A stretch of DNA of 43,338 bases, from positions 1-43,338 of the forward strand of contig CAZMIO010000009.1 in the NCBI GenBank assembly GCA_964566535.1, read 5' to 3'. This document shows, piece by piece, positions 439 to 31,309 of the stretch (position 1 is its first letter; each line of letters starts with the position of its first letter). Origin of the DNA: an uncultured Methanosarcinales archaeon (GTDB taxonomy: Archaea; Nanobdellota; Nanobdellia; Woesearchaeales; CAZOXR01). Under the pieces are notes generated by a model, which saw only the letters and a list, made by a program, of their open reading frames with translations, was not told the origin of the DNA and did no database searches. A program made the position numbers and the translations under genes.

Positions 439-1646
439 AGTTTGCTCATCTTGCTGATTGTCATATTGGTTCGTGGCGTGATCCTAAGCTTAGGGATGCT
501 AGTACTCTTGCATTTGGGAAGGCTATTGACAAATGTGTTGAGGAGAATGTTGATTTTATTTTAGTTGCAGGTGATTTGTTTAATACTTCTTTGCCTTCTA
601 TTGATGGGTTGAAGATTGTTGTTTCTAAGCTTAAGGAAGTTAAGGATAAGGAGATTGGAGTATATATAGTTGCTGGGTCTCATGACTTTTCTCCGTCTGG
701 GAAAACGATGCTTGATGTTTTAGAGAATGCTGGACTTATTGTTAATGTTGCTAAAGGAGAGGTTGTGGAGGACAAGATTAAACTTAATTTTTCTGTTGAT
801 GCAAAGACAGGAGTTAAAATTACTGGGATGCTTGGGAAGAAAGGTGGGTTGGAGAAAGGTTATTATGAGAATTTGATGACTGAGGATATTGAGCAGGAGG
901 AAGGTTACAAGATATTTATGTTTCACTCACTTATTACTGAGTTGAAGCCTAAGAGTTTGGAGAAAGTTGATTCACATCCTATTTCTTTATTGCCTAAGAA
1001 GTTTAATTACTATGCTGGTGGGCATCCTCATTTTGTTCATAATGAAGTTCAGGAAGGTTACGGAAGGATTACTTATCCTGGGCCGTTGTTTCCTAATAAT
1101 TTTAAGGAGCTTGAGGAATTAGGGAATGGTGGATTTTATATTGTCGAGGATGAAAAGATTGAATGGCATCCAATACAGATCTACAATACATTTCCAATTA
1201 ATATTAGGGTTGAGCATAAAGTTCCTGAGCAGATTAGGGATGAAATTTTGGCTCAGATAAACAATAAAGAGTTTAATAATACAATTGTAACTATAAGAGT
1301 TTCTGGAGTACTTGAGTCTGGAAAGATTTCTGATATTAACTTTAAGGAAATTTTTAATCAGATTTATGATAAGTCTGCCTATTTTGTTATGAAGAATACT
1401 AATGCATTGACCACTAAAGAGTTTGAGGAGATTAAGGTTGATGCTGGTTCTGTAAAAGAGGTTGAGGAGAATTTGATTAAGGAACATTTAGGACAGGTTA
1501 AGGTTGAGGGGATGGATAATGCTAGAGAGGAAGGATTAATTAAAGATTTGATGCATAGTTTGAGTACTGAGAAGAAAGAAGGAGAGAGAGTAGTTGATTT
1601 TGAGAAGAGAGTTAAGTCTGAAATTTCTAAACTAGTTAATCTTTGA
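435..1646 (+). CDS. mre11: Mre11/SbcD DNA double-strand-break repair nuclease
   Basis: Phosphoesterase motifs [25 protein letters not shown]; follows herA. Confidence 0.9.
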
Positions 1647-3048
1647 GTTCTTTTTTAATTATTTCTTTTACTATGTCGGGTTTTGCTTTGCCTCTTGATT
1701 TTTGCATGACTTTTCCGACGATAAAGTTGAGTGCTTTTTCTTCTCCGTTTTTGTAGTCTTCTACTGCTTTGGGACATTCTTTAATTGCTTCCTTGCTGAA
1801 CTTTTCTATCTCTCCTTCGTCTGAGACCATTCCTAGGCCTTCTTTTGCTATGTATTCTTTAACGTCAAAAGGTTTTTCTATAAGCTTTTCAATTAATCTT
1901 TGACCTGTTTTTTCAGTAATTTCTTTTTTTTCTATAAGTTTTAGGAGGACTATTAGATTTTTTTCATCTAGTTTAATGTCGTTTAGTGTTTTTTTATTGT
2001 AGTTTAGTACTCGTGCTAGTTCTCTTCTTAGCCATTTGGCAGCCAGGACTGGGTCGATTTCAACTGCGACTCGTTCGAAAAGTTCTGCCATTTCTCTCTC
2101 TTGTCCAATTATTTCTGCATCTTCTTTTTTTATCTTATGGGTGTCTACGAATTTATCAATCTTTTTTTCTGCTAGTTCAGGTACATCTTTTTTTGTTTCT
2201 TCGATGAACTCTTTTGTCATCTCAATCTTTACTAAATCTGGATCTATTATGTAGCCATAATCTTCATCTGTTTCTTTTGTTCTTAATGAGAAAGTAACTC
2301 CGCGGTCTGAGTCCCACGCTCTTGTTTCTTGTACTAATCTTTTTGTTTTTACTTCTTGTCTTTGTCTCTCTAATTCGTAATTTAGTGCTCGTTCAATTTC
2401 TTTGAATCCAGTTACGTTTTTTACTTCTGCTCTTGTGTAGTTAGATTCTTTGATTGAGATATTTGCATCTGCTTTTATTATTCCATTGTCGATGTCAAAT
2501 ATTTTTAGATATTGTAATACTGTAATTAGTTGTTTCATGAAATCTCTTGCTTCTTCTGGTGATGTTAGTTCTGGTTCTGTAACTATTTCTAGCAATGGGT
2601 TTCCTGATCTATTGTAGTCTACAAGGACATATGGGCTTTTTTGCATTGAGTCTGGATGCACTAATGATGCAGGGTCTTCTTCCATGTGGATTCTTACTAA
2701 GTTTACTTCTTTTCCTGATTTTAGTTTTAGTTTTCCTTTTGTTGCTATTGGAATCTCATATTGAGTAATCTGATAGTTTTTACTCATGTCGGGATAGAAA
2801 TAAGATTTTCTTGAGAAGATTAACTCATCACTGATATTAGAATTAGTTGCTAAAGCCAGTTTTAGTGCATATTCAATTGCTTTTTTATTTAGGACTGGCT
2901 TTGAGCCAGGCATTCCCAAACAGACTTCACAAGTTCTTGTATTTGGCTTCTCACTGCCTGATGTTGGACAGCTACAGAATAGTTTGCTGTTCGTGTCGAG
3001 TTCGATATGAACTTCTAAGCCTATAACAATATCACTTGTGAATTTCAT
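1636..3048 (-). CDS. gatB: Asp-tRNA(Asn)/Glu-tRNA(Gln) amidotransferase subunit B
   Basis: IGLEVHIEL, RKSYFYPD..KNYQITQY, DYNRSG.PL.EIVTEP, C-terminal YqeY-like domain. Confidence 0.97.
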   Translation of the reverse strand: MKFTSDIVIGLEVHIELDTNSKLFCSCPTSGSEKPNTRTCEVCLGMPGSKPVLNKKAIEYALKLALATNSNISDELIFSRKSYFYPDMSKNYQITQYEIPIATKGKLKLKSGKEVNLVRIHMEEDPASLVHPDSMQKSPYVLVDYNRSGNPLLEIVTEPELTSPEEARDFMKQLITVLQYLKIFDIDNGIIKADANISIKESNYTRAEVKNVTGFKEIERALNYELERQRQEVKTKRLVQETRAWDSDRGVTFSLRTKETDEDYGYIIDPDLVKIEMTKEFIEETKKDVPELAEKKIDKFVDTHKIKKEDAEIIGQEREMAELFERVAVEIDPVLAAKWLRRELARVLNYNKKTLNDIKLDEKNLIVLLKLIEKKEITEKTGQRLIEKLIEKPFDVKEYIAKEGLGMVSDEGEIEKFSKEAIKECPKAVEDYKNGEEKALNFIVGKVMQKSRGKAKPDIVKEIIKKELKD

Positions 3049-3269: not shown

Positions 3270-4673
3270 CTACAGTGCAGATCCGATTTGTAATAACTTT
3301 CCTTCGTTTAAGTGATCTGCTGTGAGCATCATTCCAATTGGTAAATTGTTTTCGTGTCCAACTGGTATGTTGATGTGGGGGAGACCTGCTAAATTTGGGC
3401 CAACCGTTAATACGTCAATCATATAATTTTCAAGTAATGATAGTTGTTCTATATCTTTGAATTTTGGAGGTAATATTGGAACTGTTGGGCTGATTAATGC
3501 ATCATACTTTTTGAAAAGTTTTTTGTATTCTTCGATTATTAATGTTCTTATTTTTGTTGCTTTTATGTAGTAGGCGTCTCTGAAGCCAGCCATCCTTGCG
3601 AATGTTCCTAAGATGATTCTTCTTTTTGCTTCCTGTCCTAGATTTTTGCTTCTTACTTTTGTGAAATATTCGTTGAAGTTTCCTTCAAGTTGTTCGTGTT
3701 TTCCGTATCTCATTCCGCAGTATTTTGCTAAGTTGGTTGATGCTTCTGCAGTTGCAATGAGGTAGTATGCTGCTAATGAATGTTTCATCGTTATTGGCAA
3801 TGAAACTTCTTCATAGCTAATATTTTGATTCTCAAGTTGTTTAATACTGTCCCACACCTTGTTTTTAACTGAACTGTTCACTCCCTCTGCTAATGACTCT
3901 TTAATTACTCCTATTTTAATGTTTTTATTTTCTTTGTTTAAATAGCTTATAAAGCTTTCTACTTTGGTATTTAGTGAAGTTGATTCTTTTGGATCATGAC
4001 CTGAGATAATTTGTAGGGCTAGTGCTGCATCTTCAATGGTCCTTGTCATTGGACCTATTTTGTCTAGTGAGTTTGCATAATCTAATAATCCATATCTTGA
4101 AACACGGCCGTAAGTTGGGCACATGCCTACAACTCCGCAGAATGAGGCAGGATTTACTATTGAACCACCAGTTGATTCTCCTAGGCTTATATGTGGGAAG
4201 GTTGCTTTTTGTGTTATCCCTGCTGAGCCTCCTGAAGATCCTCCACAAGAACGTTCTTTGTCGAATGGGTTTAATGGAACTTTGAAATCAATTCCTACAT
4301 TTGTTGAGAATCCCCCAAAGCCAAATTCATCTTGGGAAGTTTTTCCTATTATTATTGCCCCCTCTGCCTTTAGTTTTTCAACTGCTGTTGCGTTAAATAA
4401 TGGTTTGTAGCCCTCTAGTATTTTTGAGCCTGCTCTTGATTCTACATCTTTTACGCAGATACAGTCTTTTATGGAGATTGGAAGTCCTGCTAGTTTTCCT
4501 TTTGGAGACTTCTTTAGTTGTTCTGCTTGTTCTAATGCTTGGTCCTCAGAAATTGTGTTTAGGTAGTTGTACTCTTTGTTTATCTTCTTTGTTTCTTCAA
4601 TAACTTTATGAGTATGTTCAACCACATCTATTTCTTTGTTTTGTACTTTTTTTATGAATTCTAAATTACTCAT
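3270..4673 (-). CDS. gatA: Asp-tRNA(Asn)/Glu-tRNA(Gln) amidotransferase subunit A
   Basis: Amidase signature ([23 protein letters not shown]), [22 protein letters not shown]. Confidence 0.96.
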
Positions 4674-5251
4674 TTTTTGATCTTGGCTGTTTTTATTAGT
4701 ATCGGTTCTAATGGTACGTCTTGCATTCCTTTTACTTCGCCTGTTTGAACTGCTTTTATTTTGTCTACTACCTCTATTCCACTTATTACTTTTGCGAATA
4801 CAGCATAACCATACCCTTGAGGAGTGGGGGCTGTGTGGTCAAGGAATGTGTTATCTACTACGTTTATGAAGAATTGGGATGTTGCTGAGTCTACAACTCC
4901 TGTTCTTGCCATTGCTAGTGTTCCTCTTTCATTCTTTAATCCGTTTGTTGCCTCATTCTTTATTGGGTCTTTTGTTTCTTTCTGGTTCATGTCTTTGTCA
5001 AAGCCTCCGCCTTGCACCATGAAGTTACTGATAACTCTATGGAATATTAAGTTGTCGTAATAACCTTCATTTACATAATCAATGAAGTTTTTTGTTGAGA
5101 TTGGAGCTTGTTCTTCGAATAGTTCAATTTCAATATTTCCTTCTGATGTTTCTAGAATTACGATTGTATTTTTAGTTTCCATGTTATCTCCTCCATTTGT
5201 ACAACCTACTAATAATGTTAATATAAGTAGTATTGGTATTAATGCTTTCAT
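4670..5251 (-). CDS. ppiA: Cyclophilin-type peptidyl-prolyl cis-trans isomerase with lipoprotein-like signal
   Basis: [40 protein letters not shown]-terminal hydrophobic stretch ending LLVGC. Confidence 0.93.
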
Positions 5252-5270: not shown

Positions 5271-5555
5271 TTAAACTGCTTTTGGTCCTTTGAAGTAACC
5301 ATCTTTTTTATGTTCTGTTAATGATAGTGCTTGTTCTTGGGTTAGGCATTCGCCTGCTTTATCTTCTCTTGTTACGTTCTTTATTTCCACTGGTTGGAAA
5401 GATGATTTTACGTCTTTAGTGTCTATCCTGTCTAGTTTTGAGAATGATTCTAGTACTTCTTTAAGTTGAGGTAGAAATTCTTTTATTTCTTTTTCAGTAA
5501 GATCTAGCTTTGCAACATTAGCTACATGCTCGATAAGTTCTTTGTCTATTTTCAT
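5271..5555 (-). CDS. gatC: Amidotransferase subunit C
   Basis: IEHVANVAKL...RED...GYFKGPKAV pattern; upstream of gatA/gatB. Confidence 0.93.
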   Translation of the reverse strand: MKIDKELIEHVANVAKLDLTEKEIKEFLPQLKEVLESFSKLDRIDTKDVKSSFQPVEIKNVTREDKAGECLTQEQALSLTEHKKDGYFKGPKAV

Positions 5556-7329: not shown

Positions 7330-7875
7330 TTATCTTAGTAAATGTCTTCTCAATTGCTCTGCTGCTCTTCTTCTGAAGTTTTTAAGTTCTTCAACGTTGC
7401 TCATCTGTCCGTAGGTTTGTTCAGAATCTTTTGGTATGAAGATGGGGTCATGACCGAATCCATAATCCCCTTTTATTTCTGTTGAGATTGTACCATTTTC
7501 TGTTCCTAGGAATGAGATTGGGCGTTTACTTGGCTCGCAAAAAGCAACTGCTGATTTGTACAGTGCAGTTCGGTCTTCAATGCCTTCCATAAGTTTTAGG
7601 ATCCCTTTTAATCCGATTCTTTTGTGGATGTATGCTGAAGAGGTTCCTGGAAAGTCTTTTAATGCAGTTATGAAGAGTCCTGAGTCTTCAACTACTACTG
7701 GCTTTTGGAATTTTTCTGCCATTTGTTTTGCTGCTAGTTTTGCTATTTCTTCTGGACTGTCTGATCTTAGTTCTAGGTAGTTGTAGTCTAATTGTTCGAC
7801 TTTTATCTCTGGCTCTAGAATTTGTTTGAATTCTTTTACTTTGTTTAGGTTTTTAGTTACGAAGGTTATTTTCAT
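7330..7875 (-). CDS. rdgB: Non-canonical purine NTP pyrophosphatase (Ham1/RdgB)
   Basis: VT.N..K..E, VEDSGL.I.AL..FPG..S, GFGHDPIF motifs. Confidence 0.93.
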   Translation of the reverse strand: MKITFVTKNLNKVKEFKQILEPEIKVEQLDYNYLELRSDSPEEIAKLAAKQMAEKFQKPVVVEDSGLFITALKDFPGTSSAYIHKRIGLKGILKLMEGIEDRTALYKSAVAFCEPSKRPISFLGTENGTISTEIKGDYGFGHDPIFIPKDSEQTYGQMSNVEELKNFRRRAAEQLRRHLLR

Positions 7876-7935
7876 GAGAAAGGGGAGGAATTAGTAGTTT
7901 AAAATTTTATCTATTCTATAGTCAAAATACAAGTC

Positions 7936-10170
7936 CTACTTTGAGAAGTCTGCTGATTTTGCTTGAGTGGCTTTTACTAAATCTTTTGCTTTCATCCTGA
8001 TTGATTTTGTATGTAATGCAGCATTGAAAGCTATGTGTTCATTTTTTAGAACTGAATTGTCTAGGTAAACTTCAATTTGGAATAGGTTGCCAAATGGCGG
8101 GACTGCTCCTATGCTTAAGCCTGAGAGTTCTTTTACTTCTTCTGCTGTTGCCAATTCTATCTTTTTTGTGTTCAGGACATCTTTTAGTTTGTGTAGATCA
8201 ATTTCTTTTGCTCCGGAAACACATGCTTGTACAAATCCTTTTTCTGTTTTGCAGATTAGTGCCTTGCAGCCTTGGTCTAGGGAAGTTCCGCGTACTTTTG
8301 CTGCTTCTTCTGAAGTGTAGACTGGTTTGTGCTCAATAATTTCGTATTCAATATTTGATTTGTTTAGTAAGTCTGTTATCTTTTCGAATATGACTTCTTT
8401 TTTTTGGGCTTTTACAAAATCTAATTTTACATGAAGTTCTTTTAATTGTTTTTCATCAACTTCTGAAGGGGAACCTTCCATCAGTGATTCTGCTGCTTTT
8501 GTCTTTGGGAATGCGATTACTTCTCTTATTGATTCGTTTCCAGTTAGGATTGCAATTAGTCTGTCAAGTCCGAATGCAATTCCGCCGTGAGGTGGAGCTC
8601 CGTATTTGAAAGCATCTAGTAAGAAGCCGAATTTTTGTTTTGCTTCTTGTTTACCGATTCCTAAGATCTTAAACATTTTTTCCTGGAGTTCTGCTTTATG
8701 GATTCTGATTGAGCCTCCGCCTAGCTCTACACCATTTAGCGTCATATCATATGCTTTTGCTCTTACATCTAATGGGTTTGAATCCAGAAGTTCTAAGTGT
8801 TCATCTTTTGGAGATGTAAATGGGTGGTGAATAGCTATGTGTCTTTGTGCATCTTCATCATATTCTACTAATGGGAAGTCGGTTACCCATAGGAAATTGA
8901 ATTTTGTTTTGTCAACAAGTTTTAGTCTTCTTGCTAATTCTAGTCTTAACTGGCCTAATGCAGTATCTACAACGAAATGTTTGTGGTCTCCTACGAAAAG
9001 AAGCAAGTCATCTTTCTCTGCTTTTGTTTTTTTGATTATTTTTTCTTGTAGGTCTTTATCGAAGAACTTTACAACTGATGATTCTAATTTATCTGTGTAT
9101 TTCATCCATGCTAATCCTTTTGCTTCGTAGATAGCTACAAAACTTGTTAGTTCATCAATATCTTTTCTTGAGAAGTATGCACAGCCTTTTGCATTTATAC
9201 ATCTTACTTTACCGCCCGACTTTACTGCATCTGCGAAAACTTTGAATTCTGAGTTTTTTACTATGTCGCTGACATCAATTAATTCTAGTTCGAATCTTGT
9301 ATCTGGTTTGTCAGTTCCATATCTTTCTATTGCCTCTTTGTGAGTTAATCTTGGGAATGGTGTTTTGATATGGGTGTTCATTATTTTTTCCCATATGTCT
9401 ACCATCAATCCTTCCATTACTGTGTAGATATCTTCTTCGTCTATGAAACTCATTTCAGCGTCTATTTGGGTGAATTCTGGTTGTCTGTCTGCTCTTAGGT
9501 CTTCATCTCTGAAACATTTTACAATTTGGATGTATCTGTCAAATCCTGAGACCATAAGTAATTGTTTGAATAACTGAGGTGATTGTGGAAGTGCGAAGAA
9601 TGTTCCTGGGTTTACTCTTGAAGGTACTAAGTAGTCTCTTGCTCCTTCTGGTGTTGATTTTGCAAGCATAGGTGTTTCGATTTCTATGAAATTGTGCTTG
9701 TCGAAATAATCTCTTACGACTTTTGCTGTTTTGTGCCTTATGATTAAGTTGTTTTGCATGCTTGGGTTTCTTAAGTCCAAGTAACGGTACTTTAATCTCA
9801 TATCTTCGTTTATTTCTACTCTGCCGTCGATTTCTATTGGAGGAGTTTCTGCTTTGTTAAGTATGATTAGTTTGTTTGTGAAAACTTCTATTTCTCCTGT
9901 TGGAAGTTTTTTGTTTTCCATGCCTTCTTTTCTTTTTTTTACGATTCCATGGACTTCTAGAACATCTTCTCTTCTTAGGTGTTCAGCTTCTTTGTGAACT
10001 TCTTCGTTGAACTCTGGGGAGAATGCTACTTGAGTAATTCCATATCTGTCTCTTAAGTCTATGAAGATAACTCCGCCATGGTCACGTCTAGTATCTACCC
10101 AACCATTTAGGGTGACTTTCTTATTCTCGTTTCTTAGCTTTAGCTCTCCGCATGTATGTGTTCGTTTCAT
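7936..10170 (-). CDS. aspS: Bacterial-type aspartate-tRNA(Asp/Asn) ligase with C-terminal YbaK/ProXp deacylase-like domain
   Basis: RTHTCGEL, RRDHGG..FIDLRD, STPEGARDYLVP, CFRDEDLRADRQPEFTQ, GAD insert, HHPFT, GAPPHGG.A.GLDR; extra ~155-aa tail with GCKALI and GAVPPFG. Confidence 0.96.
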   Translation of the reverse strand: MKRTHTCGELKLRNENKKVTLNGWVDTRRDHGGVIFIDLRDRYGITQVAFSPEFNEEVHKEAEHLRREDVLEVHGIVKKRKEGMENKKLPTGEIEVFTNKLIILNKAETPPIEIDGRVEINEDMRLKYRYLDLRNPSMQNNLIIRHKTAKVVRDYFDKHNFIEIETPMLAKSTPEGARDYLVPSRVNPGTFFALPQSPQLFKQLLMVSGFDRYIQIVKCFRDEDLRADRQPEFTQIDAEMSFIDEEDIYTVMEGLMVDIWEKIMNTHIKTPFPRLTHKEAIERYGTDKPDTRFELELIDVSDIVKNSEFKVFADAVKSGGKVRCINAKGCAYFSRKDIDELTSFVAIYEAKGLAWMKYTDKLESSVVKFFDKDLQEKIIKKTKAEKDDLLLFVGDHKHFVVDTALGQLRLELARRLKLVDKTKFNFLWVTDFPLVEYDEDAQRHIAIHHPFTSPKDEHLELLDSNPLDVRAKAYDMTLNGVELGGGSIRIHKAELQEKMFKILGIGKQEAKQKFGFLLDAFKYGAPPHGGIAFGLDRLIAILTGNESIREVIAFPKTKAAESLMEGSPSEVDEKQLKELHVKLDFVKAQKKEVIFEKITDLLNKSNIEYEIIEHKPVYTSEEAAKVRGTSLDQGCKALICKTEKGFVQACVSGAKEIDLHKLKDVLNTKKIELATAEEVKELSGLSIGAVPPFGNLFQIEVYLDNSVLKNEHIAFNAALHTKSIRMKAKDLVKATQAKSADFSK

Positions 10171-17504: not shown

Positions 17505-18860
17505 TTAGACTTCTTTGTCCACCATAATATATTTAGCTAGTAATGGATGTTTTTCTTTGATTAAGTCATACATTTGCCATGCTACTTGCCTGTAAGACAA
17601 ATGTCCTGTTTTTCCGCTTCTTAATTTTATGAAATGGAATAATGACCTTAAGTTCATTTTCATGAGAACTCTTTTTCTGTATGCCATTGGGATGATGTAG
17701 GATGCTTCGTCTAATTCTTTCATTTGTTTGTATGCTTGTTCTGCTTTTTCCATGCATTCAACGTAAGTGTTTTTGAATCCTGCTTTTATTATCTCATCTG
17801 GGATTATGTATCCTTGGTCAACTGTGAAGTCTTGGTTTGTTTGAGTGCACATCCTATGTCTTTGCACGTCTCTAAATGCTCCGTAGTCGATTAATACGTC
17901 GAATGTGTAGAAGATGTGTTCTAACTTTCTTAATGGTGCGTCAAATTTGCCTAGTCTTCTTAATGATTCGTCTATGATATTCTCTTTTTCTTCGTTTGAG
18001 AGTGCTAATACTTTCTCTTTTGCTTGGTTGTAGTTTAGTTGCGAATATTTGTAGATTAATGATGCTAAGAGTTTTGTTTCGGCGTCATTGTCGAACTCAA
18101 CTAATGTGACTTCGTTTTGGTTCGTTTTGTTATTTACCGGTTCTTTGAATTTCAATGACCCTCTTAGTGCTTTGTCTGTTTCACCAATGTATTCATTATA
18201 TTTTATGTGTTTGATTAATGTTGGTGTTACTTTTAATGCACTTTCTTTTAGTTCATTTCCGATTTCTTGCATTTCGTTGAAAGGGTGAGTTAAGAGTTTT
18301 ATTATTCCATGTTCTAGGTTCCTTGCATTTAATGTCATCCCTAAGTTTGTTAGGGTTGAGACTGGTAATAGGTATCTACAAGCGTCTAGTGCTAAGTTTT
18401 TTATTTCGATTTCTGATTTGTCTTTGAATTTATTTTTGAAGAAGTCGACCATCTTTGGGACGAGTTTTGTGTACTGGTCCATTATGAAGTTTGTTGTTTG
18501 TTCGTAGATGTCTTTGAACTTTGATTCCATTATCTTTTTTGGTTTTAAGTAAGTTGTTTTGTCGAAGACTTGGTATCTTGTGGATTTTTCAGTGTAAGAA
18601 GCTAGTCTGTTGTCTTCTAATACTTTTGTTGCTAGCATTGAGACGTTTTCTAGTGCTATGCTTAATACTGCGTGCTCTGCAACAGAAGAATGACCGTAGC
18701 CGACAACCCATTTTTCATGGAATTTTCTTGATTTGTCTGCGTTTAGCTCTGCTGCTATCTTATCGAATGGTTCTGGAGACCTTGAGCACTTTGCGAATGC
18801 AACTGCAACGACTTCTGGTGGAAGTCCTGTAAGAGTATAGATCCTTCTTTTTTTGTCCAT
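17505..18860 (-). CDS. thyX: FAD-dependent thymidylate synthase, tandem Thy1-domain form
   Basis: GHSSVAEHA, RLASYTEKSTRY, second domain FRDVQRHR, NLRSL.HFI.LR. Confidence 0.9.
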   Translation of the reverse strand: MDKKRRIYTLTGLPPEVVAVAFAKCSRSPEPFDKIAAELNADKSRKFHEKWVVGYGHSSVAEHAVLSIALENVSMLATKVLEDNRLASYTEKSTRYQVFDKTTYLKPKKIMESKFKDIYEQTTNFIMDQYTKLVPKMVDFFKNKFKDKSEIEIKNLALDACRYLLPVSTLTNLGMTLNARNLEHGIIKLLTHPFNEMQEIGNELKESALKVTPTLIKHIKYNEYIGETDKALRGSLKFKEPVNNKTNQNEVTLVEFDNDAETKLLASLIYKYSQLNYNQAKEKVLALSNEEKENIIDESLRRLGKFDAPLRKLEHIFYTFDVLIDYGAFRDVQRHRMCTQTNQDFTVDQGYIIPDEIIKAGFKNTYVECMEKAEQAYKQMKELDEASYIIPMAYRKRVLMKMNLRSLFHFIKLRSGKTGHLSYRQVAWQMYDLIKEKHPLLAKYIMVDKEV

Positions 18861-23037: not shown

Positions 23038-24120
23038 TTATTTTCCTAGAACTATCTTTTTTGCTAATGGCAGTTTGGTTTTTACTTTGGCCTGGTGTTT
23101 TGTTAATGTTTCTTGTAAGAATTTGATACAAATTTGTTTGTCTTGTCCACACATTAGTTTTCCTGCTTTGCATTGTTTGTATGTTTTTTGGATGAATTTA
23201 GAATCTGGATGGTGGAATTTGTAGATCTCATAGATTTTACAGATTTCTGGTTCTCCGCCATCCTTTTTTTGTTCTTCTATTGTATCTTTCCCGCCGGTAA
23301 ATGCTCTTGAAAGTTTTCTTTTGATGTCTTCTGGTTTGTCGTTTAGGAAAATTGCAGTGTCTGGTTCTGATGATGACATCTTTTTCCCTTTTTGTAGGCC
23401 AGATTGATGTTTGAAGTAGATGAATGATGGGACTTCTAAATTGTAAGGTAGGCGTCTTGCAATATCCCTTGTTATTTTAGCGTGAGGGTCTTGTTCTAAT
23501 CCCATTCCTGTTACTGAAGGCATAATACCTTCGTATTCTTCTAATTGGGGATGTAGGATGTCTGCTATTTGGAGAAGGACTGCTTGCATCTTTCCTAAGT
23601 CAGTATGGCCATAGATCCCCTCGTACATGTTTTTTGTTATTTTTTTTGCTATTTCGAATGTGAATTCATAATATTTTGGAGAACCCTGGCTTTGTACGTA
23701 ACAATCTTTTTCTTCTAAGCCTAGTGCTAGTGCGTGGGCTAGATTGTCTATTGCAAATTCTTTTGCTTCAGTCATTGTTTTTATTTTTTCTCTTGAATTG
23801 TATGCGTCAATGTCGCAGACTGCGAAGAAGTTCTTTGCTCCTAGTTTTTTGAAGAGGACGAATAAGTCTAAATCAACTTTGTGGCCTAAGTGTAATGGTC
23901 CTGATGTTGCTATTCCAGTCATGTTAATGAATGGTTTTTTTGCAGATATTCTGGCCATTACTTTTTCAAAGTCTCTGTGAGCTACTATTATGTTTCTTTC
24001 GAAGAAGATATGGTTTAATTTCTTTCTTAGATTGGATGGGAATTCCTTTAGTCCGAACTTTTCGAAGATATGGCTATAGTCAGTGATTTCAGCTGAGCTC
24101 CAAGGGTCTATTTTTGTCAT
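23038..24120 (-). CDS. trpS: Tryptophan-tRNA ligase (archaeal type)
   Basis: SGPLHLGH, QDPH, KMSSS, AFTGG..T.EEQK..GG.P; last gene of trp operon. Confidence 0.95.
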   Translation of the reverse strand: MTKIDPWSSAEITDYSHIFEKFGLKEFPSNLRKKLNHIFFERNIIVAHRDFEKVMARISAKKPFINMTGIATSGPLHLGHKVDLDLFVLFKKLGAKNFFAVCDIDAYNSREKIKTMTEAKEFAIDNLAHALALGLEEKDCYVQSQGSPKYYEFTFEIAKKITKNMYEGIYGHTDLGKMQAVLLQIADILHPQLEEYEGIMPSVTGMGLEQDPHAKITRDIARRLPYNLEVPSFIYFKHQSGLQKGKKMSSSEPDTAIFLNDKPEDIKRKLSRAFTGGKDTIEEQKKDGGEPEICKIYEIYKFHHPDSKFIQKTYKQCKAGKLMCGQDKQICIKFLQETLTKHQAKVKTKLPLAKKIVLGK

Positions 24121-24920
24121 TTTGTTTTTGCCTTTAATGCTTTTATGAATTCCTGTATTTTAGTTAACATTAATTCCTTATTATTTAAACTTTCCTCAAT
24201 TATCTTTACTAATGATGAGCCAACTATTGCTCCGTCTGCTCCTGCACTGGTGATTTCTTTTACTTGGTTTGGGTTAGAGATACCGAATCCTACGCAGATT
24301 GGTAGGGTTGTGTTTGGTTTTATTGATTTTATTAGTTCTAAAGTGTTTTGTTGGATGTCTGCTCTTGCTCCTGTTACTCCTAATCTTGAAACGACGTAAA
24401 TGAATCCCTTTGTGTTTTTTGCTATGTTTTTTAGTCTTGCTTCGTTTGTCAAGGGTGAGACTATGAATACTGGGTCTATCTTGTTTGCTTTTGCTTCTTT
24501 AATGAATGGGTCTGCTTCTTCTATTGGTAGGTCTGCTACAAGTACAGAGTCTACTCCTGCTTCTTTTGCGTCTTTGTAGAAGTGATTGATACCTCTTTGG
24601 ATTATTAGGTTGGAGTAGAGTAAGAGTCCAATTGGGATTTTGCTGTTGTAGTCTCTTATTTCTTTTATGAATTCGAAGTTTTTGTCTGTGTCTATTTTTG
24701 ATTTTAGTGCCCTTATATCTGCGGATTGGATTGTTGGTCCGTCTGCGATTGAGTCACTAAATGCGAAGCCTAATTCTAGGATGTCTGCACCACTGTCAAT
24801 TATCTTTTTTACTATCTCTAAGGATGTTTTGTAGTCTGGATCTCCAATTACGACGAATGGAACTAGTGCTTTTTCTTTGTTCTTGTTTAGTTTGTTGAAT
24901 GTTTTTTTGTATCTGCTCAT
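24117..24920 (-). CDS. trpA: Tryptophan synthase alpha subunit
   Basis: GDPD, LELG..FSD..ADGPTIQ, GVTG, VGFGIS, DGAIVGS. Confidence 0.97.
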   Translation of the reverse strand: MSRYKKTFNKLNKNKEKALVPFVVIGDPDYKTSLEIVKKIIDSGADILELGFAFSDSIADGPTIQSADIRALKSKIDTDKNFEFIKEIRDYNSKIPIGLLLYSNLIIQRGINHFYKDAKEAGVDSVLVADLPIEEADPFIKEAKANKIDPVFIVSPLTNEARLKNIAKNTKGFIYVVSRLGVTGARADIQQNTLELIKSIKPNTTLPICVGFGISNPNQVKEITSAGADGAIVGSSLVKIIEESLNNKELMLTKIQEFIKALKAKTK

Positions 24921-24921
24921 T

Positions 24922-25404
24922 TTAGATCTTTTTTATCATCAATTTCAGATTCTCTTTAAAACCAATTTTTTCCCAGGCTTTTATTGAAGATGTATTTTTT
25001 GAATGAGTCCTTAACATTACAAATTTCATTTTTTTTGATTTAAACCATTTTAGTAATTCATTTGTTAATTTTTTCCCAATGCCTTTTTTTCTATATTTTT
25101 TTGTAACTGTTGCTTCGAGTATAAATCCATTCTTTTTTATCGCTAAATCTGGAGGTCTATCTTCAATCCGGCCTCCGATGTGACCTATTATGGTTTTATT
25201 AATCTCTGCTATAATATATTTTGAATTCTTATCTTTAATTTCTTTATTTAAAAATTTCTTATAACTTTGAACAGTATTTTTATCTTGGCTATAAAAAAAT
25301 GGATCAATTTTGATGTGGTAATCCATCATCTCTAACCAAAGCTTTGCCATTCCTGGTATGTCTTTTTGAGTTACATCTCTTACTTTTATCATATCTTTTG
25401 GCAT
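24922..25404 (-). CDS. GNAT family N-acetyltransferase
   Basis: YRKKGIGKKL motif A; N...IKAWEKIGF. Confidence 0.9.
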   Translation of the reverse strand: MPKDMIKVRDVTQKDIPGMAKLWLEMMDYHIKIDPFFYSQDKNTVQSYKKFLNKEIKDKNSKYIIAEINKTIIGHIGGRIEDRPPDLAIKKNGFILEATVTKKYRKKGIGKKLTNELLKWFKSKKMKFVMLRTHSKNTSSIKAWEKIGFKENLKLMIKKI

Positions 25405-25405
25405 T

Positions 25406-25876
25406 TTAGAGTTTGATGTACATCTGTTTTACTTTTTCTTTGAATCCGATTTTATCCCATGATTTTACCCCTTGGGTGTTTGAGGTGTCTGCTCTTAGGT
25501 AAACTCTGTTCATCTTTTTCTTTTTGAAGAATGTTTTTGCTTTGCCTACTAGTTTTTTCATTATGCCTTTTCTTCTTTTTTCTTTTATTACGAATCCGTC
25601 GCTGATGTAACCTATCTTGTCTTCGTTGTAGATTGGTGGTTCGTCTCTGATGAAACCCATTAGGTAACCAATAAGTTGTTTGTCTTCTTCTGCCACTATT
25701 AATATTGAGTTTTTGCTTTTGATGTTTTTTATTATGAATTTTTTAAAGATTGATTTTGAATTCTTTTTGAGTCTTGAAGGGTTTGTGATTACATCTTGAT
25801 GGTGGTCCATCAATCCTTTCCAAAGTGTTGCAATCTGTTCTGTATCTTTTACGGTAGCGTCTCTTATCTTTATCAT
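25406..25876 (-). CDS. GNAT family N-acetyltransferase
   Basis: [20 protein letters not shown]; paralogous to neighbour. Confidence 0.9.
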
Positions 25877-27057
25877 ATTTCTAAACCCATCTCTTTTGCT
25901 GCGTGAGTGACGTCTTTGTCTCCTCTGCCTGAGAGGTTTATTATTATTAATTGGTTTTTGAATTGTGTTTTGTTTTTTACTAGGTAGCCTACTGCATGGG
26001 CAGATTCTAGGGCAGGGATTATTCCTTCTTCTTTACTTAATAGTTGGAATGCATCTAAACATTCTTTGTCGGTTGCGTAATCGTATTCTGCTCTGTTGAT
26101 TTCTCTAAGATGGGAGTGTTCAGGTCCTATTGCGCAGTAATCTAATCCAGCTGAGACTGAGTGGGTATTGAAGATTTGTCCGAATTTGTCTTGTAGGACG
26201 TAAGTGTATGCTCCGTGGATAATTCCTTTTCTGCCTATTTCTTTGTCTGCGAATCTTGCTGCATGTTTTTTTGATTCAATTCCTAGACCGCCTGCTTCTA
26301 CTCCTATTAATCTTGTGCTTTTGTCGTTTAGGAATGCTTTGAAGATTCCTATTGAGTTTGATCCGCCTCCGACGCATGCTATTACTGCGTCAGGTAACTT
26401 GTTTTCTGCTTTTAGGATTTGTTTTCTTGCTTCTTTTCCTATTGTTTGGTGGAAGTAAGCTACCATTGTAGGATATGGATGTGGTCCTAGTGCAGACCCT
26501 AATAAGTAGTGGGTTGTTTGGACGTTTGTTGTCCAGTCTCTTAGGGCTTCGTTGATTGCGTCTTTTAACGTTTTTGAGCCGGTGTCTACTGGATTTACTT
26601 TTGCGCCTAGAAGTTTCATTCTGAAGACATTTAGTTTTTGTCTTTCGATATCAGTTGTTCCCATGTAGATTTCGCATTCTAATCCTAGTTTTGCTGCTGC
26701 AGTTGCCGTTGCTACTCCGTGCTGTCCTGCCCCGGTTTCTGCTATGATTCTTTTCTTTCCCATGTATTTTGCTAATAGGGCTTGTCCTAATGCGTTGTTT
26801 ATCTTATGGGCTCCGGTGTGTGCTAAGTCTTCTCTTTTTAGATAAAGTTTTAATTCTAATTTTTTACTTAGGTTTTTGCAGAATGTCAATTGAGTTGGGC
26901 GTCCTGCGTATTCGGTTAGTAGATTGTGGAATTCGTTTGTGAATTTTTTATCTGATTTGTATTTGTTGAAGGCTGCCTCTAGCTCTTCGCAGGCTGGCAT
27001 TAATGTTTCTGGAACGAAAATGCCCCCGTATTTTCCGAATCTTCCTTTTGATTTCAT
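25873..27057 (-). CDS. trpB: Tryptophan synthase beta subunit (TrpB1)
   Basis: [45 protein letters not shown]. Confidence 0.98.
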
Positions 27058-27695
27058 TTTTTTGCGTATTCTATGATTTTTTTTAGTTTGGTTCTATCTT
27101 TTAATCTTGGTTTTGCTTTGACACCACTGTTTGTGTCTACTGCAAATGGTTTTACTTCTTTAATTGCTTTTTGAATATTTTTTGGGTTTAGGCCACCTGC
27201 AAGGAATACTTTGGTCTTTACTGATTTAACTATTTTTTTGCTTATTTCCCAATTGTGAGTAATTCCTGTTCCGCCTAATTTATCCTTTGTTTTTGAGTCT
27301 AGGAGTATGAAGTCAACATGTTTTTCATATTCTTTTGCTTGTTCTATTGCTGATTCGTCTTGTACGTGGATTACTTTTGTTAACTTTATTTTTGGTAATG
27401 CTTTTCTTATTTTTCCGATTGTCTTTAGGTCGATTTCTGGATTGTGAAGTTGGATGATGTCCGGGTTTATTTCTTCTGCTAATTCTATTATATGGGTCGG
27501 GTTTGTTAGGTAAGTTACTAGGACTGGTTGAACTTCTAATGGTAGTTTTTTTATTAGTATTTTTGCTTCTTCCCTTGTTATTGAATCTTCTGAAAAGTCG
27601 ATTTCGACTAGGAAACCGAGATAATCTGCTCCGTAGTTAACTGCTGCTAATGCGTCGCTGATGTTTGTTATTCCGCAGATTTTTACTTTAGTCAT
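27054..27695 (-). CDS. trpF: Phosphoribosylanthranilate isomerase
   Basis: [28 protein letters not shown]. Confidence 0.96.
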
Positions 27696-28095
27696 TTTTA
27701 GTCAATTCCATTGCAACTATCCCTTTTCTTATCTTACATATTTCTAGTTTTTGTTTGATTGATTTTGGAGGGTTAGTTGAAGGTATAAAACCAAAATGTT
27801 CCATGAGTTTTGGAATGTCTGTTGTTGCGTAAAGTTTTTTTGGTCCTTTTTTGATTAATTCGTTAATGATTGTTCTTGCAATTCCCTTTCTTCTATATTT
27901 AGGTATTACTCCTAATGATCCAATTTCAACTGCGTCGTTGTATGGCTTTAGTCTGCCAAAACCTACGGTTTTGTTTGATTCTTCTGCGATGATGAACTGG
28001 TTTTCTTGTAAATCTTCTGGGTCTAATTTGAACTCTTCTATTTTTTCTTTAATGAAATGCATGTCTTCTCCTTTTGCTTTTCTTAGACTAACCAT
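27688..28095 (-). CDS. GNAT family N-acetyltransferase (ArgA-like short form)
   Basis: EIGSLGV.PKYRRKGIA; ATG at 28095 (MVSLRKA) preferred over upstream TTG. Confidence 0.85.
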   Translation of the reverse strand: MVSLRKAKGEDMHFIKEKIEEFKLDPEDLQENQFIIAEESNKTVGFGRLKPYNDAVEIGSLGVIPKYRRKGIARTIINELIKKGPKKLYATTDIPKLMEHFGFIPSTNPPKSIKQKLEICKIRKGIVAMELTKND

Positions 28096-28119
28096 TTGCT
28101 TAAATTTTTTGTTTTCCAA

Positions 28120-28270
28120 TACGGTTTTAATTTTTTATCCAATGGTTTTGATTTTCAATAGGGGGAATATTTGCTTTATGCTCTTGATCTCTTTGAGGAG
28201 ATGTTCCCCACACCCTTGCGCTTTTGTTCTTTAATGGAGCAAAGGGTTAATGATTAGTTTTCTATTGGTA
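28120..28270 (-). pseudogene. Possible decayed GNAT fragment
   Basis: Minus strand reads KEQKRKGVG, then EHLLKEIK in a shifted frame (GNAT motif A-like); stops in all frames. Confidence 0.35.
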
Positions 28271-28275
28271 ATTTT

Positions 28276-28923
28276 TTATTGCTTTGCGGCGTCTCTTAGT
28301 TCCTTAATCGCCTTAACGCGGTCTTCTTGTCCGAAGACTGCTGAGCCTGCTACAACAATGTTTGCTCCTGCTTTTACTGCTTCGTGGATTGTTTCTTTTT
28401 TTATTCCACCGTCAATTTGAATATCTAGGTTTGGTTCTGCTGCTCTTAGGTCTCTGACTTTCTTTAGGACTTCTGGGATGAAGTCTTGCCCTGCATAACC
28501 TGGATTTACTGACATTACTAATACCATGTCTACATTTTTTAGGTAGGGTGCTAATTTACCTATTTTTGTGGGTGGGTTTAATGAAAGCCCTACTTTTACT
28601 CCTTTTCTTTTGATGTGGTTGATACACGCTCCAACATCATCACTTGCTTCTACATGTATGGTAATTGAGTTTGCTCCGGCATCTATGTAGTCATCTATGA
28701 ATCTATCTTTTAGCGGATGTTCAACCATCAGATGAACGTCTTTGAATATTTTTGAGGTGATTTCTTTAATTTGCTCTGGTTTGAAGGTTGTTGGGGGAAC
28801 GAATTTTCCGTCCATAACATCAACATGGATCATTTCTACATGTTCTTCTATTTGTTCAACTTCTTTTTGCAGACTGTTTATCTCTGCTGATAGAATAGAT
28901 GGTGCTATTTGTAGTGGTTTCAT
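28276..28923 (-). CDS. rpe: Ribulose-phosphate 3-epimerase
   Basis: IAPSILSA, HVDVMDG.FVP, DVHLMV, MSVNPG..GQ, IDGG, VAGSA. Confidence 0.97.
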   Translation of the reverse strand: MKPLQIAPSILSAEINSLQKEVEQIEEHVEMIHVDVMDGKFVPPTTFKPEQIKEITSKIFKDVHLMVEHPLKDRFIDDYIDAGANSITIHVEASDDVGACINHIKRKGVKVGLSLNPPTKIGKLAPYLKNVDMVLVMSVNPGYAGQDFIPEVLKKVRDLRAAEPNLDIQIDGGIKKETIHEAVKAGANIVVAGSAVFGQEDRVKAIKELRDAAKQ

Positions 28924-29678
28924 TTTAGTAACTCTCCTATTTTTTTGTTTATGTTCTTTGCTTTCATAAATGTTGTGCCTATTAGGACTGCGTTTATGTT
29001 TTTTAGTTTTTTTATGTCGGCTTTTGTTTTGAATCCTGATTCGGATACTATGAGCTTGGTTTTGGGGATTAGTTTTTTTAGTTTTAATGTTGTGTTGATG
29101 TCTATCTTGAATGTTTTTAGATTTCTGTTGTTAATGCCTATGATATTTGTAGATGTTTTTAGAACTTTTTCTAGTTCTTCTTTTGTGTGGACTTCAACTA
29201 AGCAATCCATGTTGTAAGTTTTGGCTATTTTAATAAATTTATTGATTTTTTCTTTTGTTAGGATGGCTGCTATTAGTAGTATTGCGTCTGCTCCGTAGAG
29301 TCTTGACTCGTAAACTTGGTATTCGTCAATAATGAAGTCTTTTCTTAATAATGGTTTTTTAGTTAGTTTTTTAGTTTCTGCTATGCATGTTGGGGCCATG
29401 AAGAAGAATTCCCAGTCAGTTAGAACCGATATTGCCTTTACATGGTTGTTTTTTTGATATGTTTTTGCTATGTTTTCTAGGTTGAAGTTTTTGTTGATGA
29501 TTCCTTCTGAGGGGGAACCTTTTTTTATTTCCGCGATTATGCTTAATGGTTTTGAGATTGCTTTTTTGAAGTTTCTGTTTGAATTCTTTAGTTTCTGCTT
29601 GAAACTAGCTAAAGGAAGTGTTTTCTTCCTTAATTGAACTTCTTGTTTTTTTGCGATTACAATCTTATCTAGTATCAT
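28920..29678 (-). CDS. trpC: Indole-3-glycerol phosphate synthase
   Basis: IAEIKKGSPSEG, ISVLTD, LRKDFIID, LVEVH, GINNRNL, VSESG. Confidence 0.97.
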   Translation of the reverse strand: MILDKIVIAKKQEVQLRKKTLPLASFKQKLKNSNRNFKKAISKPLSIIAEIKKGSPSEGIINKNFNLENIAKTYQKNNHVKAISVLTDWEFFFMAPTCIAETKKLTKKPLLRKDFIIDEYQVYESRLYGADAILLIAAILTKEKINKFIKIAKTYNMDCLVEVHTKEELEKVLKTSTNIIGINNRNLKTFKIDINTTLKLKKLIPKTKLIVSESGFKTKADIKKLKNINAVLIGTTFMKAKNINKKIGELLK

Positions 29679-29712
29679 TGTTTTAATCCTCAGAATATTA
29701 ATTGAGAGGACC

Positions 29713-30726
29713 CTATTTATTAGTCCAAACTTTTAACTTATTAAGCTTTTCTAATGCTTTGCCAGAATCAATAGAATTTTCTGCTACTTTTATGGCTGCT
29801 TTAATGCTGTCTGCTTTACCTGCTGTGTAGATAGCGGCTGCTGCATTAAGAATTGTTATGTCTCTTTTGGGGCCTTTTTCTTTTCCGTGTAGGATATTTA
29901 GGATTATTTTTGCGTTGTCTTTTGGTGAGTTGCCTTGTATCTCTTTTGAGGAGGATAGTTTTATGTTGAAGTCTGCTGGATTAATTTCATATGTTGTTAC
30001 GTGGTTATCTTTGTATTCTGCTACTTTTGTTTTTGTTTCTAATGTTATTTCGTCCAATCCGTTTCCGTGGACAACTAATGCATGTTTTGTTCCAAGTTTG
30101 CCTAGGACTTTTGCTAATGGTGTTACTAATTCTTCGCTGAAAACTCCCATTAACTCAAAAGGTGCTTCAGCTGGATTTGTTAATGGTCCTAGGATGTTGA
30201 AGATTGTTCGTACTCCTAGTTCTTTTCTTGGTGCGATTGCGTATTTCATTGCTTTGTGGAATTTTGGGGCGAACATATAGCCAATTCCAATCTCTTCGAT
30301 GCACTTTTCAACTTGTTTTGGTTCTAGGTTTATGTTTACTCCAAGTTCTGTTAGAACATCTGCTGAGCCTGACTTAGATGAGACGGATTTGTTGCCGTGT
30401 TTTGCAACTGGGATTCCTGCTCCAGCTACTACGAATGCAGCTGCCGTTGAGATATTGAATGTGCCTGATGAATCTCCACCTGTTCCTACAACGTCAATTA
30501 AGTGTTTGTGGTTTTTTGGCTTTATTCTTTCTGCTTTTTGTCTCATTACTTTTGCGCAGGCAGTTATTTCATCAATCGTTTCTCCTTTTTGCCTTAATGC
30601 TATAAGAAAACCAGCTATCTGAGCGTCAGTTGCTTTGCCTGACATAATCAGGTTCATTGCTTCTTCTGCTTCATTTGAGGTGAGGTCTTGTGTGTTAAGA
30701 AGTTTCTGGATAGTTGCTTGTATCAT
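29713..30726 (-). CDS. trpD: Anthranilate phosphoribosyltransferase
   Basis: GTGGD..GTFNIST, KHGN.SVSSKSGSAD, RTIFN.LGPL.NP, GLDE; ATG at 30726 directly after trpG stop. Confidence 0.97.
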   Translation of the reverse strand: MIQATIQKLLNTQDLTSNEAEEAMNLIMSGKATDAQIAGFLIALRQKGETIDEITACAKVMRQKAERIKPKNHKHLIDVVGTGGDSSGTFNISTAAAFVVAGAGIPVAKHGNKSVSSKSGSADVLTELGVNINLEPKQVEKCIEEIGIGYMFAPKFHKAMKYAIAPRKELGVRTIFNILGPLTNPAEAPFELMGVFSEELVTPLAKVLGKLGTKHALVVHGNGLDEITLETKTKVAEYKDNHVTTYEINPADFNIKLSSSKEIQGNSPKDNAKIILNILHGKEKGPKRDITILNAAAAIYTAGKADSIKAAIKVAENSIDSGKALEKLNKLKVWTNK

Positions 30727-30727
30727 T

Positions 30728-31309
30728 TTAACTATCTCTGGCAAACTTGATAATGTTGTCAATAAGTTCTCCACCTAAGGGAGTTAGAATGCTTTCAGGA
30801 TGATATTGGACTCCAATAATGGGATGTTCTTTATGCCTGATGCCCATGATTACTCCTGTATCTGATCTTGCGGAGATTTCTATTGAGTAAGGGACGTCAA
30901 GTCCAGTTAATGAATGGTAACGGCCAGCCTGGAATGGGTTTTCAATATTTTTGTAGATTCCAGTATTGTCATGCTTTATCTTTGAAGGCTTGCCATGGAC
31001 AATTTCAGGTGCTTTTCCAACCATCCCTCCAAATGCTTCTATGATGCATTGATGGCCTAAGCAGATTCCGAAGATTGGGATTTTGTCAAAGTATTGTTTC
31101 ACTATTTCAACTGAGTTTCCAGCTTGTTTTGGAGTTGAAGGTCCTGGTGAAATTACAATTAGGTCTGGTTTGAATTTGGTTATTGTGGAGTCTATTACCC
31201 TTAGGTCCACGTTGTTTCTGTATACAACTACTTCGCAGTCTCGTTTTTGGAATTCATCTACTAAATTGTAGGTGAATGAGTCGAAGTTGTCGATAAATAG
31301 GATTTTCAC
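30728..31309 (-). CDS. trpG: Anthranilate synthase component II (glutamine amidotransferase)
   Basis: IDNFDSFTYNL, SPGP, GICLGHQ, RYHSL, HPES; GTG start. Confidence 0.97.
   Translation of the reverse strand: MKILFIDNFDSFTYNLVDEFQKRDCEVVVYRNNVDLRVIDSTITKFKPDLIVISPGPSTPKQAGNSVEIVKQYFDKIPIFGICLGHQCIIEAFGGMVGKAPEIVHGKPSKIKHDNTGIYKNIENPFQAGRYHSLTGLDVPYSIEISARSDTGVIMGIRHKEHPIIGVQYHPESILTPLGGELIDNIIKFARDS

Follow-up and report, generated by a model that had tools for sequence, protein, structure and literature searches.

A predicted YeaK-related deacylase domain fused to a non-discriminating, bacterial-type aspartyl-tRNA synthetase in a Woesearchaeales archaeon

To our knowledge, aspartyl-tRNA synthetase (AspRS) is normally counted among the synthetases that work without editing. 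The closest described systems are of three kinds. Escherichia coli YeaK/ProXp-ST1 (b1787), to which FthB is related, is a free-standing, single-domain Ser/Thr-tRNA deacylase. The AspRS of Pseudomonas aeruginosa (structures 4wj3/4wj4) is a non-discriminating enzyme that takes part in a GatCAB Asn-transamidosome. Finally, INS-superfamily domains occur within a class II synthetase in bacterial prolyl-tRNA synthetase (ProRS) and in protist ProXp-ala-ProRS fusions; apart from such ProRS-linked cases, a 2024 review treats INS members as single-domain proteins (PMC11295145). The accessible part of a prokaryote-wide synthetase survey likewise mentions YbaK only with ProRS (PMC5388404), and roughly one synthetase in two is considered to function with no proofreading (PMC7373986). 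No AspRS-INS fusion was described in the literature searched, and earlier INS-family papers or supplements may mention one; the pairing of AspRS with PF04073 is visible in public Pfam annotations. Here, we analysed such a fusion, the 744-amino-acid aspS-ProXp gene of an uncultured archaeon of the order Woesearchaeales, located on a 43,338-nucleotide contig that we refer to as the window (CAZMIO010000009.1, assembly GCA_964566535.1). The fusion is a real, widespread and new arrangement of known parts, with a predicted deacylase activity.

The gene is a single uninterrupted open reading frame with no internal stops, and all the motifs quoted in a preliminary description of the sequence were recovered from its translation (RRDHGG at residue 28, QLKELHV at 575, EH at 613, GTSLDQGCKALICK at 628 and GAVPPFG at 688). 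Such a gene could be an assembly artefact or a recent read-through of two genes, given that free copies of the domain lie directly downstream of aspS in some relatives and that one 151-residue record (P0121), with its start called at I594, contains the tail alone; this record is probably a contig-edge fragment. However, when four sequencing runs were compared, contigs from two independent studies spanned the junction with neither mismatches nor gaps (X5, 8177-9200; X7, 7992-8828), and a piece from X8 (7700-8472) also crossed the linker, while X10 was gapped at the junction. The identical 744-residue protein is present in NCBI, JGI, Logan and ENA data, and its cluster holds a second member of the same length. 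Searching the tail against long proteins returned 194 matches, and all 120 of those listed carry both PF00152 and PF04073. The bridging contigs, these fused homologues and the fused genes of related genomes (see below) refute a lost stop codon between two genes, the possibility that the preliminary description had left standing, and we regard an artefact or recent read-through as practically out of the question. In one relative (G072), the fused aspS (L065:5132-7418) is itself split over two frames of 351 and 439 amino acids, by a frameshift or an assembly error.

The host is archaeal, as had been proposed, with its nearest named homologues in Woesearchaeota/Nanoarchaeota, and its genome of 1.45 Mb is 91% complete. 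The synthetase core scores 809 bits on the NCBIfam aspS_bact model (cut-off 374) and contains the GAD insertion, which upholds its description as bacterial-type. This was originally presented as an oddity in an archaeon; it is unsurprising here, since 31 of 40 sampled relatives of the same order have a full-length bacterial-type AspRS match. Across its OB, GAD and core regions the protein is about 50% identical to the P. aeruginosa enzyme, and H31 and G83 align with the His and Gly of 4wj3, positions at which E. coli AspRS (1c0a) has Leu and Lys and which we take to be determinants of tRNA discrimination. The gatC, gatA and gatB genes lie on the same strand, 2.4-6.3 kb downstream of the fused gene, and profile searches with PF00152 and TIGR00457 found no asparaginyl-tRNA synthetase (AsnRS) in the 91%-complete genome. 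On these grounds the core looks non-discriminating, in agreement with the preliminary description. Unlike the P. aeruginosa enzyme, it is followed by an extra deacylase-like domain of 155 residues, and the alignments to solved AspRSs among the fold matches all end by about residue 590.

Of the 163 residues that follow V581, about 155 form this domain, the length first estimated for the extension after QLKELHV. The tail matches PF04073 at residues 614-733 (E 1.6e-30, 106 bits, cut-off 25.5), and its AlphaFold model, with a predicted local distance difference test score (pLDDT) of 95.7, resembles 2cx5 (template-modelling score 0.86, Z 21.9, root-mean-square deviation 2.0 over 151 residues), YbaK (Z 20.5) and ProXp-ala (Z 15.9). 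Its assignment to the YbaK superfamily is thereby confirmed, with K636 and the GXXXP motif intact. The conserved Lys is reported to be required for deacylation in all INS members tested (PMC10164551). Across 41 Woesearchaeales-type fused tails, position 636 is Lys in 90% and Arg in 10%, and G688 and P692 are present in 100%. In the full-length model the linker is of low confidence, which is consistent with a tethered domain. The partner (a class IIb synthetase), the C-terminal position on such a linker and the YeaK-like subfamily, which is neither INS nor ProXp-ala, all set the protein apart from the ProRS fusions.

The best characterised sequence relative of the tail is E. coli YeaK (85.5 bits, 29% identity). 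Searches with phmmer against solved chains, whose scores are on a different scale, gave 52 bits for 2cx5 (ProXp-x), 37 for YbaK (Cys-tRNA-Pro) and 28 for ProXp-ala; these proteins share the fold of the tail and differ from it in their lower sequence scores, their pocket-lining residues and their separate branches. The tail scores 69-74 bits on the YbaK model TIGR00011, far below the curated cut-off of 153, and does not classify as a YbaK; nor does it classify as a ProXp-ala/PrdX, having Asn at 716 in place of the His of the FHP motif and falling on a separate branch from the one PrdX reference. We built a FastTree phylogeny of 229 domains (identity-reduced from 499, with 24 fragments dropped) over 156 columns, its sampling biased to homologues of the query. 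The tail branched with YeaK (support 94) and away from the references for YbaK, PrdX and ProXp-x-like proteins, but outside a 12-row YeaK/FthB-like clade (support 97) that contains E. coli YeaK. The proposed likeness to YeaK/ProXp-ST1 therefore stands as to the nearest relative, and not as to membership: since this clade excludes the tail, we filed it as YeaK-related and not as YeaK. With YeaK it shares the fold, the catalytic Lys, GXXXP and the H614, RGT, FNA and S723 motifs. H614, R627, N716, A717, S723 and D730 are common to the tail and the 12-row group; none of the reference rows for YbaK, PrdX and ProXp-x-like proteins has R627, N716 or S723. Positions 620, 716 and 723, which presumably line the pocket, are Ser, Asn and Ser in the alignment, small and polar and not basic. 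Asn716 is kept in 98% and 96% of fused tails; Ser occupies this position in 70% of the free copies linked to aspS or asnS, as in YbaK, and the two residues possibly mark two specificities. Because the catalytic residues and YeaK motifs are kept, yet the tail falls outside the strict clade, it looks like an active, YeaK-related domain of its own lineage.

We then surveyed 301 genomes of the same order that were at least 85% complete. A match was present in 91 of them; the fusion occurred in 22, spread over 15 families (these include the present genome, G072 and the unpublished G120 and G183; 20 without those two), and another 47 had a strong free copy. Loci were examined for 78 of the 100 matches listed plus G004 and G035, the present genome, G027, two unpublished genomes and the weakest matches being omitted, and distances were measured between open frames. 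Among the 48 strong free copies (the 47 and that of G004), 22 had aspS, asnS or a gat gene no more than 1 kb away and 26 no more than 3 kb away; at the latter distance the same held for only one of 12 weaker copies of other subfamilies. No strong free copy was near proS or thrS, probed with the present genome's own ProRS and ThrRS; alaS lay at about 1 kb from one copy, and serS at 1.1 and 6.5 kb from two. At nine loci (L066, L068, L069, L070, L074, L078, L079, L082 and L088) a short AspRS of about 430-480 amino acids, GAD-less or archaeal-type, has a free ProXp gene within 1.4 kb. Two further Woesearchaeales ProXp proteins (L110 and L111) group tightly (support 99) with a Streptantibioticus cattleyicolor plasmid protein, unannotated in its record, which we presume may be FthB; this grouping suggests transfer.

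The form of the domain tracked the route to Asn-tRNA, and its presence did not. Where asnS was matched and gatB was not, the domain was fused in 0 of 123 genomes and free in 34; where gatB was matched and asnS was not, it was fused in 16 of 122 and free in 8. Genomes with both had it fused in 4 of 46 and free in 5, and those matching neither had it fused in 2 of 10 and free in none. Overall, 20-28% of genomes had the domain whichever route they used. These tallies include a few unpublished genomes, an absent match is not an absent gene, and kin genomes are not independent, so that a Fisher test of form against route overstates the association. Given that 34 of the 123 genomes matched for AsnRS but not for gatB carry the domain as a free gene, the transamidosome-specific role first suggested is weakly supported at best. 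The broader suggestion, a link to the Asp/Asn tRNA system, is supported by the placement of the free copies and by the bacterial loci described next.

An occurrence in both DPANN and the candidate phyla radiation (CPR), raised in the preliminary description, was also observed. Among 301 genomes drawn from the phylum of one Patescibacteria genome, 44 matched, and the best 30 loci, inspected with flanks of about 1.5 kb, comprised seven AspRS fusions, seven genes directly after aspS, one between aspS and asnS, two fusions to an apparent D,D-peptidase and 13 with no Asp/Asn gene nearby. The genomes of 29 of these 30 loci have gatB, which is uninformative because bacteria use GatB for Gln too. Among the 120 fusions listed from the 194 matches, 90 have a GAD-bearing, 21 a GAD-less bacterial-type and 9 an archaeal-type AspRS. 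In a tree of 108 cores, archaeal-type and bacterial-type cores were split with support 100 and the fused state required 13 changes; in the tail tree, by contrast, the tails of archaeal-type and GAD-less cores intermingle. The domain therefore accompanies aspS even across a change of aspS lineage. As a lead only, AspRS plus PF04073 clusters in the ESM Atlas have Chlamydiota and CPR3 as their commonest taxa. Several proteins of the wider family (P0239, P0243, P0279, P0285, P0291, P0356 and P0384) have two or three tRNA_edit domains in tandem, or join the domain to a class I W/Y synthetase, to RuvX, to GmrSD_N or to redoxin. In Patescibacteria, a D-Ala-D-Ala carboxypeptidase-like gene often follows the ProXp gene (L180-L189, L203 and L209); ProXp and Pfam S11 are fused in P0301 and P0318, and L202 and L204 look alike.

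We tentatively propose, with somewhat less than even confidence, that the tail is a tethered post-transfer editor that clears an incorrect small amino acid from tRNA-Asn and tRNA-Asp, with Ser or Thr as its probable target. From what is known of the family, the non-discriminating AspRS would charge both tRNAs, and GatCAB would then convert Asp-tRNA-Asn. The deacylase, which its gene context suggests is dedicated to Asp/Asn tRNAs, would most likely hydrolyse the wrong residue from mischarged tRNA after transfer, probably acting on released or repositioned tRNA and not from a rigid cis position. In genomes with distinct AspRS and AsnRS enzymes, the domain is mostly encoded by a free gene next to theirs and could act for the two of them in trans; a single enzyme that charges both tRNAs often has the domain fused to it. 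A further possible effect of tethering is to hold a deacylase blind to the discriminator base off correct Ser-tRNA-Ser. Ser/Thr is our best guess because of three observations: ProXp-ST1 is described as hydrolysing Ser/Thr-tRNAs with indifference to N73, while ST2 and ProXp-x favour A73 (PMC11295145); the residues aligned with the pocket are small and polar; and serine has been reported at Asn positions in Chinese hamster ovary cells (cited in PMC7595273).

Several observations weigh against this proposal. Apart from its place outside the YeaK clade, the tail has T619/S620/A623 and H720 where E. coli YeaK has K/C/V and L, so that Ser/Thr specificity need not transfer from YeaK, and most asnS-linked free copies (70%) lack Asn716, carrying Ser. 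The domain appears dispensable, a strong copy being found in only 69 of the 301 genomes at a similar frequency for every Asn route. For 22 of the 48 strong free copies in the order, no Asp/Asn gene lies within 3 kb, and at 15 of the best 30 Patescibacteria loci there is none within 1.5 kb. The tails of the 22 fused genomes, which belong to a 45-row group (support 89), may stem from one fusion, followed perhaps by losses within Woesearchaeales. The family is also fused to peptidase S11, RuvX, GmrSD, redoxin and a class I W/Y synthetase, and no report of AspRS mischarging Ser or Thr was found in the literature searched.

Some of these points suit a different arrangement, in which a general YeaK-like Ser/Thr trans-editor for many tRNAs is parked beside aspS, or joined to it, so as to be co-expressed, with AspRS as its carrier and not its client. 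The tRNA range of ProXp-ST1 is described as broad (PMC11295145), editing by a ProRS-fused ProXp-ala is expected to take place mainly in trans (PMC11286415), and both the fusions with unrelated neighbours and the patchy presence independent of the Asn route fit such an editor. However, the association with aspS and asnS persists over two domains of life and three AspRS lineages and does not extend to other synthetase genes; ThrRS and AlaRS of this genome already have editing domains of their own; and neither L110 nor L111, which nest within the true YeaK/FthB-like clade, lies close to Asp/Asn genes. We thus consider a parked general editor possible but rather unlikely. It is clearly less probable that the tail removes an acidic or AspRS-made product, such as surplus Asp-tRNA-Asn, Glu-tRNA, D-Asp-tRNA or a non-protein Asp analogue. 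In favour of this, the core is non-discriminating, the tail departs from YeaK at its small A623 and its conserved H720, and free copies are commonest in the asnS-positive genomes with no gatB match, many of which have the His of position 31 in their AspRS and, lacking that match, could not amidate Asp-tRNA-Asn. Yet the fused form is found mostly where Asp-tRNA-Asn is a required intermediate (18 of the 22 have no asnS match), and the aligned pocket positions do not suggest a basic pocket. The genome also encodes an archaeal D-aminoacyl-tRNA deacylase (PF04414, E 2.8e-60; DTD1 was looked for and not found), and the bacterial AspRSs described in PMC6523644 formed neither Glu-tRNA-Asn nor Glu-tRNA-Asp.

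The genome has no PF04073 match besides the tail, and its 480-residue archaeal-type ProRS shows no INS domain, which might suggest service to ProRS in trans, on Ala- or Cys-tRNA-Pro. The low score on the YbaK model, the missing His of the PrdX motif, the separate branches and the lack of any strong free copy near proS make this improbable. A non-catalytic scaffold, holding the tRNA 3' end or GatCAB in a transamidosome, appears improbable as well: gatB is matched in 20 of the 22 fused genomes, with a partial gatB in the locus of a 21st, and PF04073-like domains are found at the N-terminus of GatB in G067 (L139:5607-7469), where the domain is divergent, and between gatA and gatB in G301 (L106:7008-7499), but these two fall outside the tail's lineage, the catalytic residues of the tail are invariant or nearly so, and 34 genomes with no gatB match have free copies.

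On the tRNA side, no tRNA-Asp was recognised in the assembly by ARAGORN, for which a lowered threshold gave noise; its one 'Asp' call was rejected, as it looks like an intron-bearing tRNA-His. An intron-bearing tRNA resembling tRNA-Asn (G000:C1:278995-279139) has an ambiguous anticodon and an apparent C1:G72/A73 end; tRNA-Asp and tRNA-Asn usually have G73. The features of the window are listed in the table below.

Table. Coordinates of the fused gene, its domains and neighbouring genes in the window
Feature	Position	Strand	Basis
aspS-ProXp fusion gene, 744 aa	7936..10170	-	ORF (open reading frame) and Pfam/NCBIfam profiles; junction bridged by independent contigs
OB-fold anticodon-binding domain, residues 19-103, with H31 (10078-10080) and G83 (9922-9924)	9862..10116	-	PF01336; alignment to 4wj3 and 1c0a
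Class IIb catalytic domain, residues 121-558	8497..9810	-	PF00152, E 1.3e-128
GAD insertion, residues 312-402, marker of bacterial-type AspRS	8965..9237	-	PF02938
Linker, residues 582-591, pLDDT <50, presumably flexible	8398..8427	-	structure model
INS-superfamily (YeaK-related) predicted aminoacyl-tRNA deacylase domain, residues 590-744	7939..8403	-	PF04073, alignment, tree, fold match
Key tail residues: H614, R627-G628-T629, K636 (8263-8265), G688-P692 (8095-8109), N716, S723, D730	within 7939..8403	-	
Ham1/RdgB nucleoside triphosphate pyrophosphatase; in relatives, commonly next to the fused gene on its downstream side; shown for context, outside the mechanism	7330..7875	-	Pfam
gatC	5271..5555	-	TIGR00135 above cut-off
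gatA	3270..4673	-	TIGR00132 above cut-off
gatB	1636..3048	-	TIGR00133 above cut-off

A cyclophilin gene beside gatC and gatA (4670-5251) recurs, together with Ham1, in many fusion-bearing relatives. Further along the window, a near-complete tryptophan cluster (23038-32931; trpE, trpD, trpC, trpB and trpA by Pfam, trpG and trpF by eye) has a TrpRS-like gene next to it; DPANN genomes usually encode little amino-acid biosynthesis. A 451-residue ThyX-like protein with two Thy1 stretches (Pfam) is encoded at 17505-18860. A scan for promoters and terminators gave matches at chance level. The sequencing runs containing at least half of the window's words were seawater or marine metagenomes, and no RNA dataset was among the runs listed as containing window sequence.

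Taken beyond this genome, the proposal of a tethered Asp/Asn editor would make a distinct INS-family lineage a dedicated Asp/Asn proofreader in DPANN and CPR, and apparently in some Chlamydiota, repeatedly attached to unrelated AspRS types; we judge the chances of this wider claim to be evenly balanced. These would be the first AspRSs with built-in editing, and they would reveal an unrecognised error of AspRS or AsnRS, whether Ser/Thr, an Asp analogue or surplus Asp-tRNA-Asn. Should the domain be only a general YeaK parked on AspRS, the fusion would amount to a modest new architecture. A deacylase-like domain that follows aspS and asnS over two domains of life and three AspRS lineages predicts an unrecognised charging error and offers an enzyme that can be assayed directly, and, if this is true, small-genome symbionts would have gained, not lost, quality control. 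The fusion thus hints at a proofreading step in the Asp/Asn charging of small-genome microbes.

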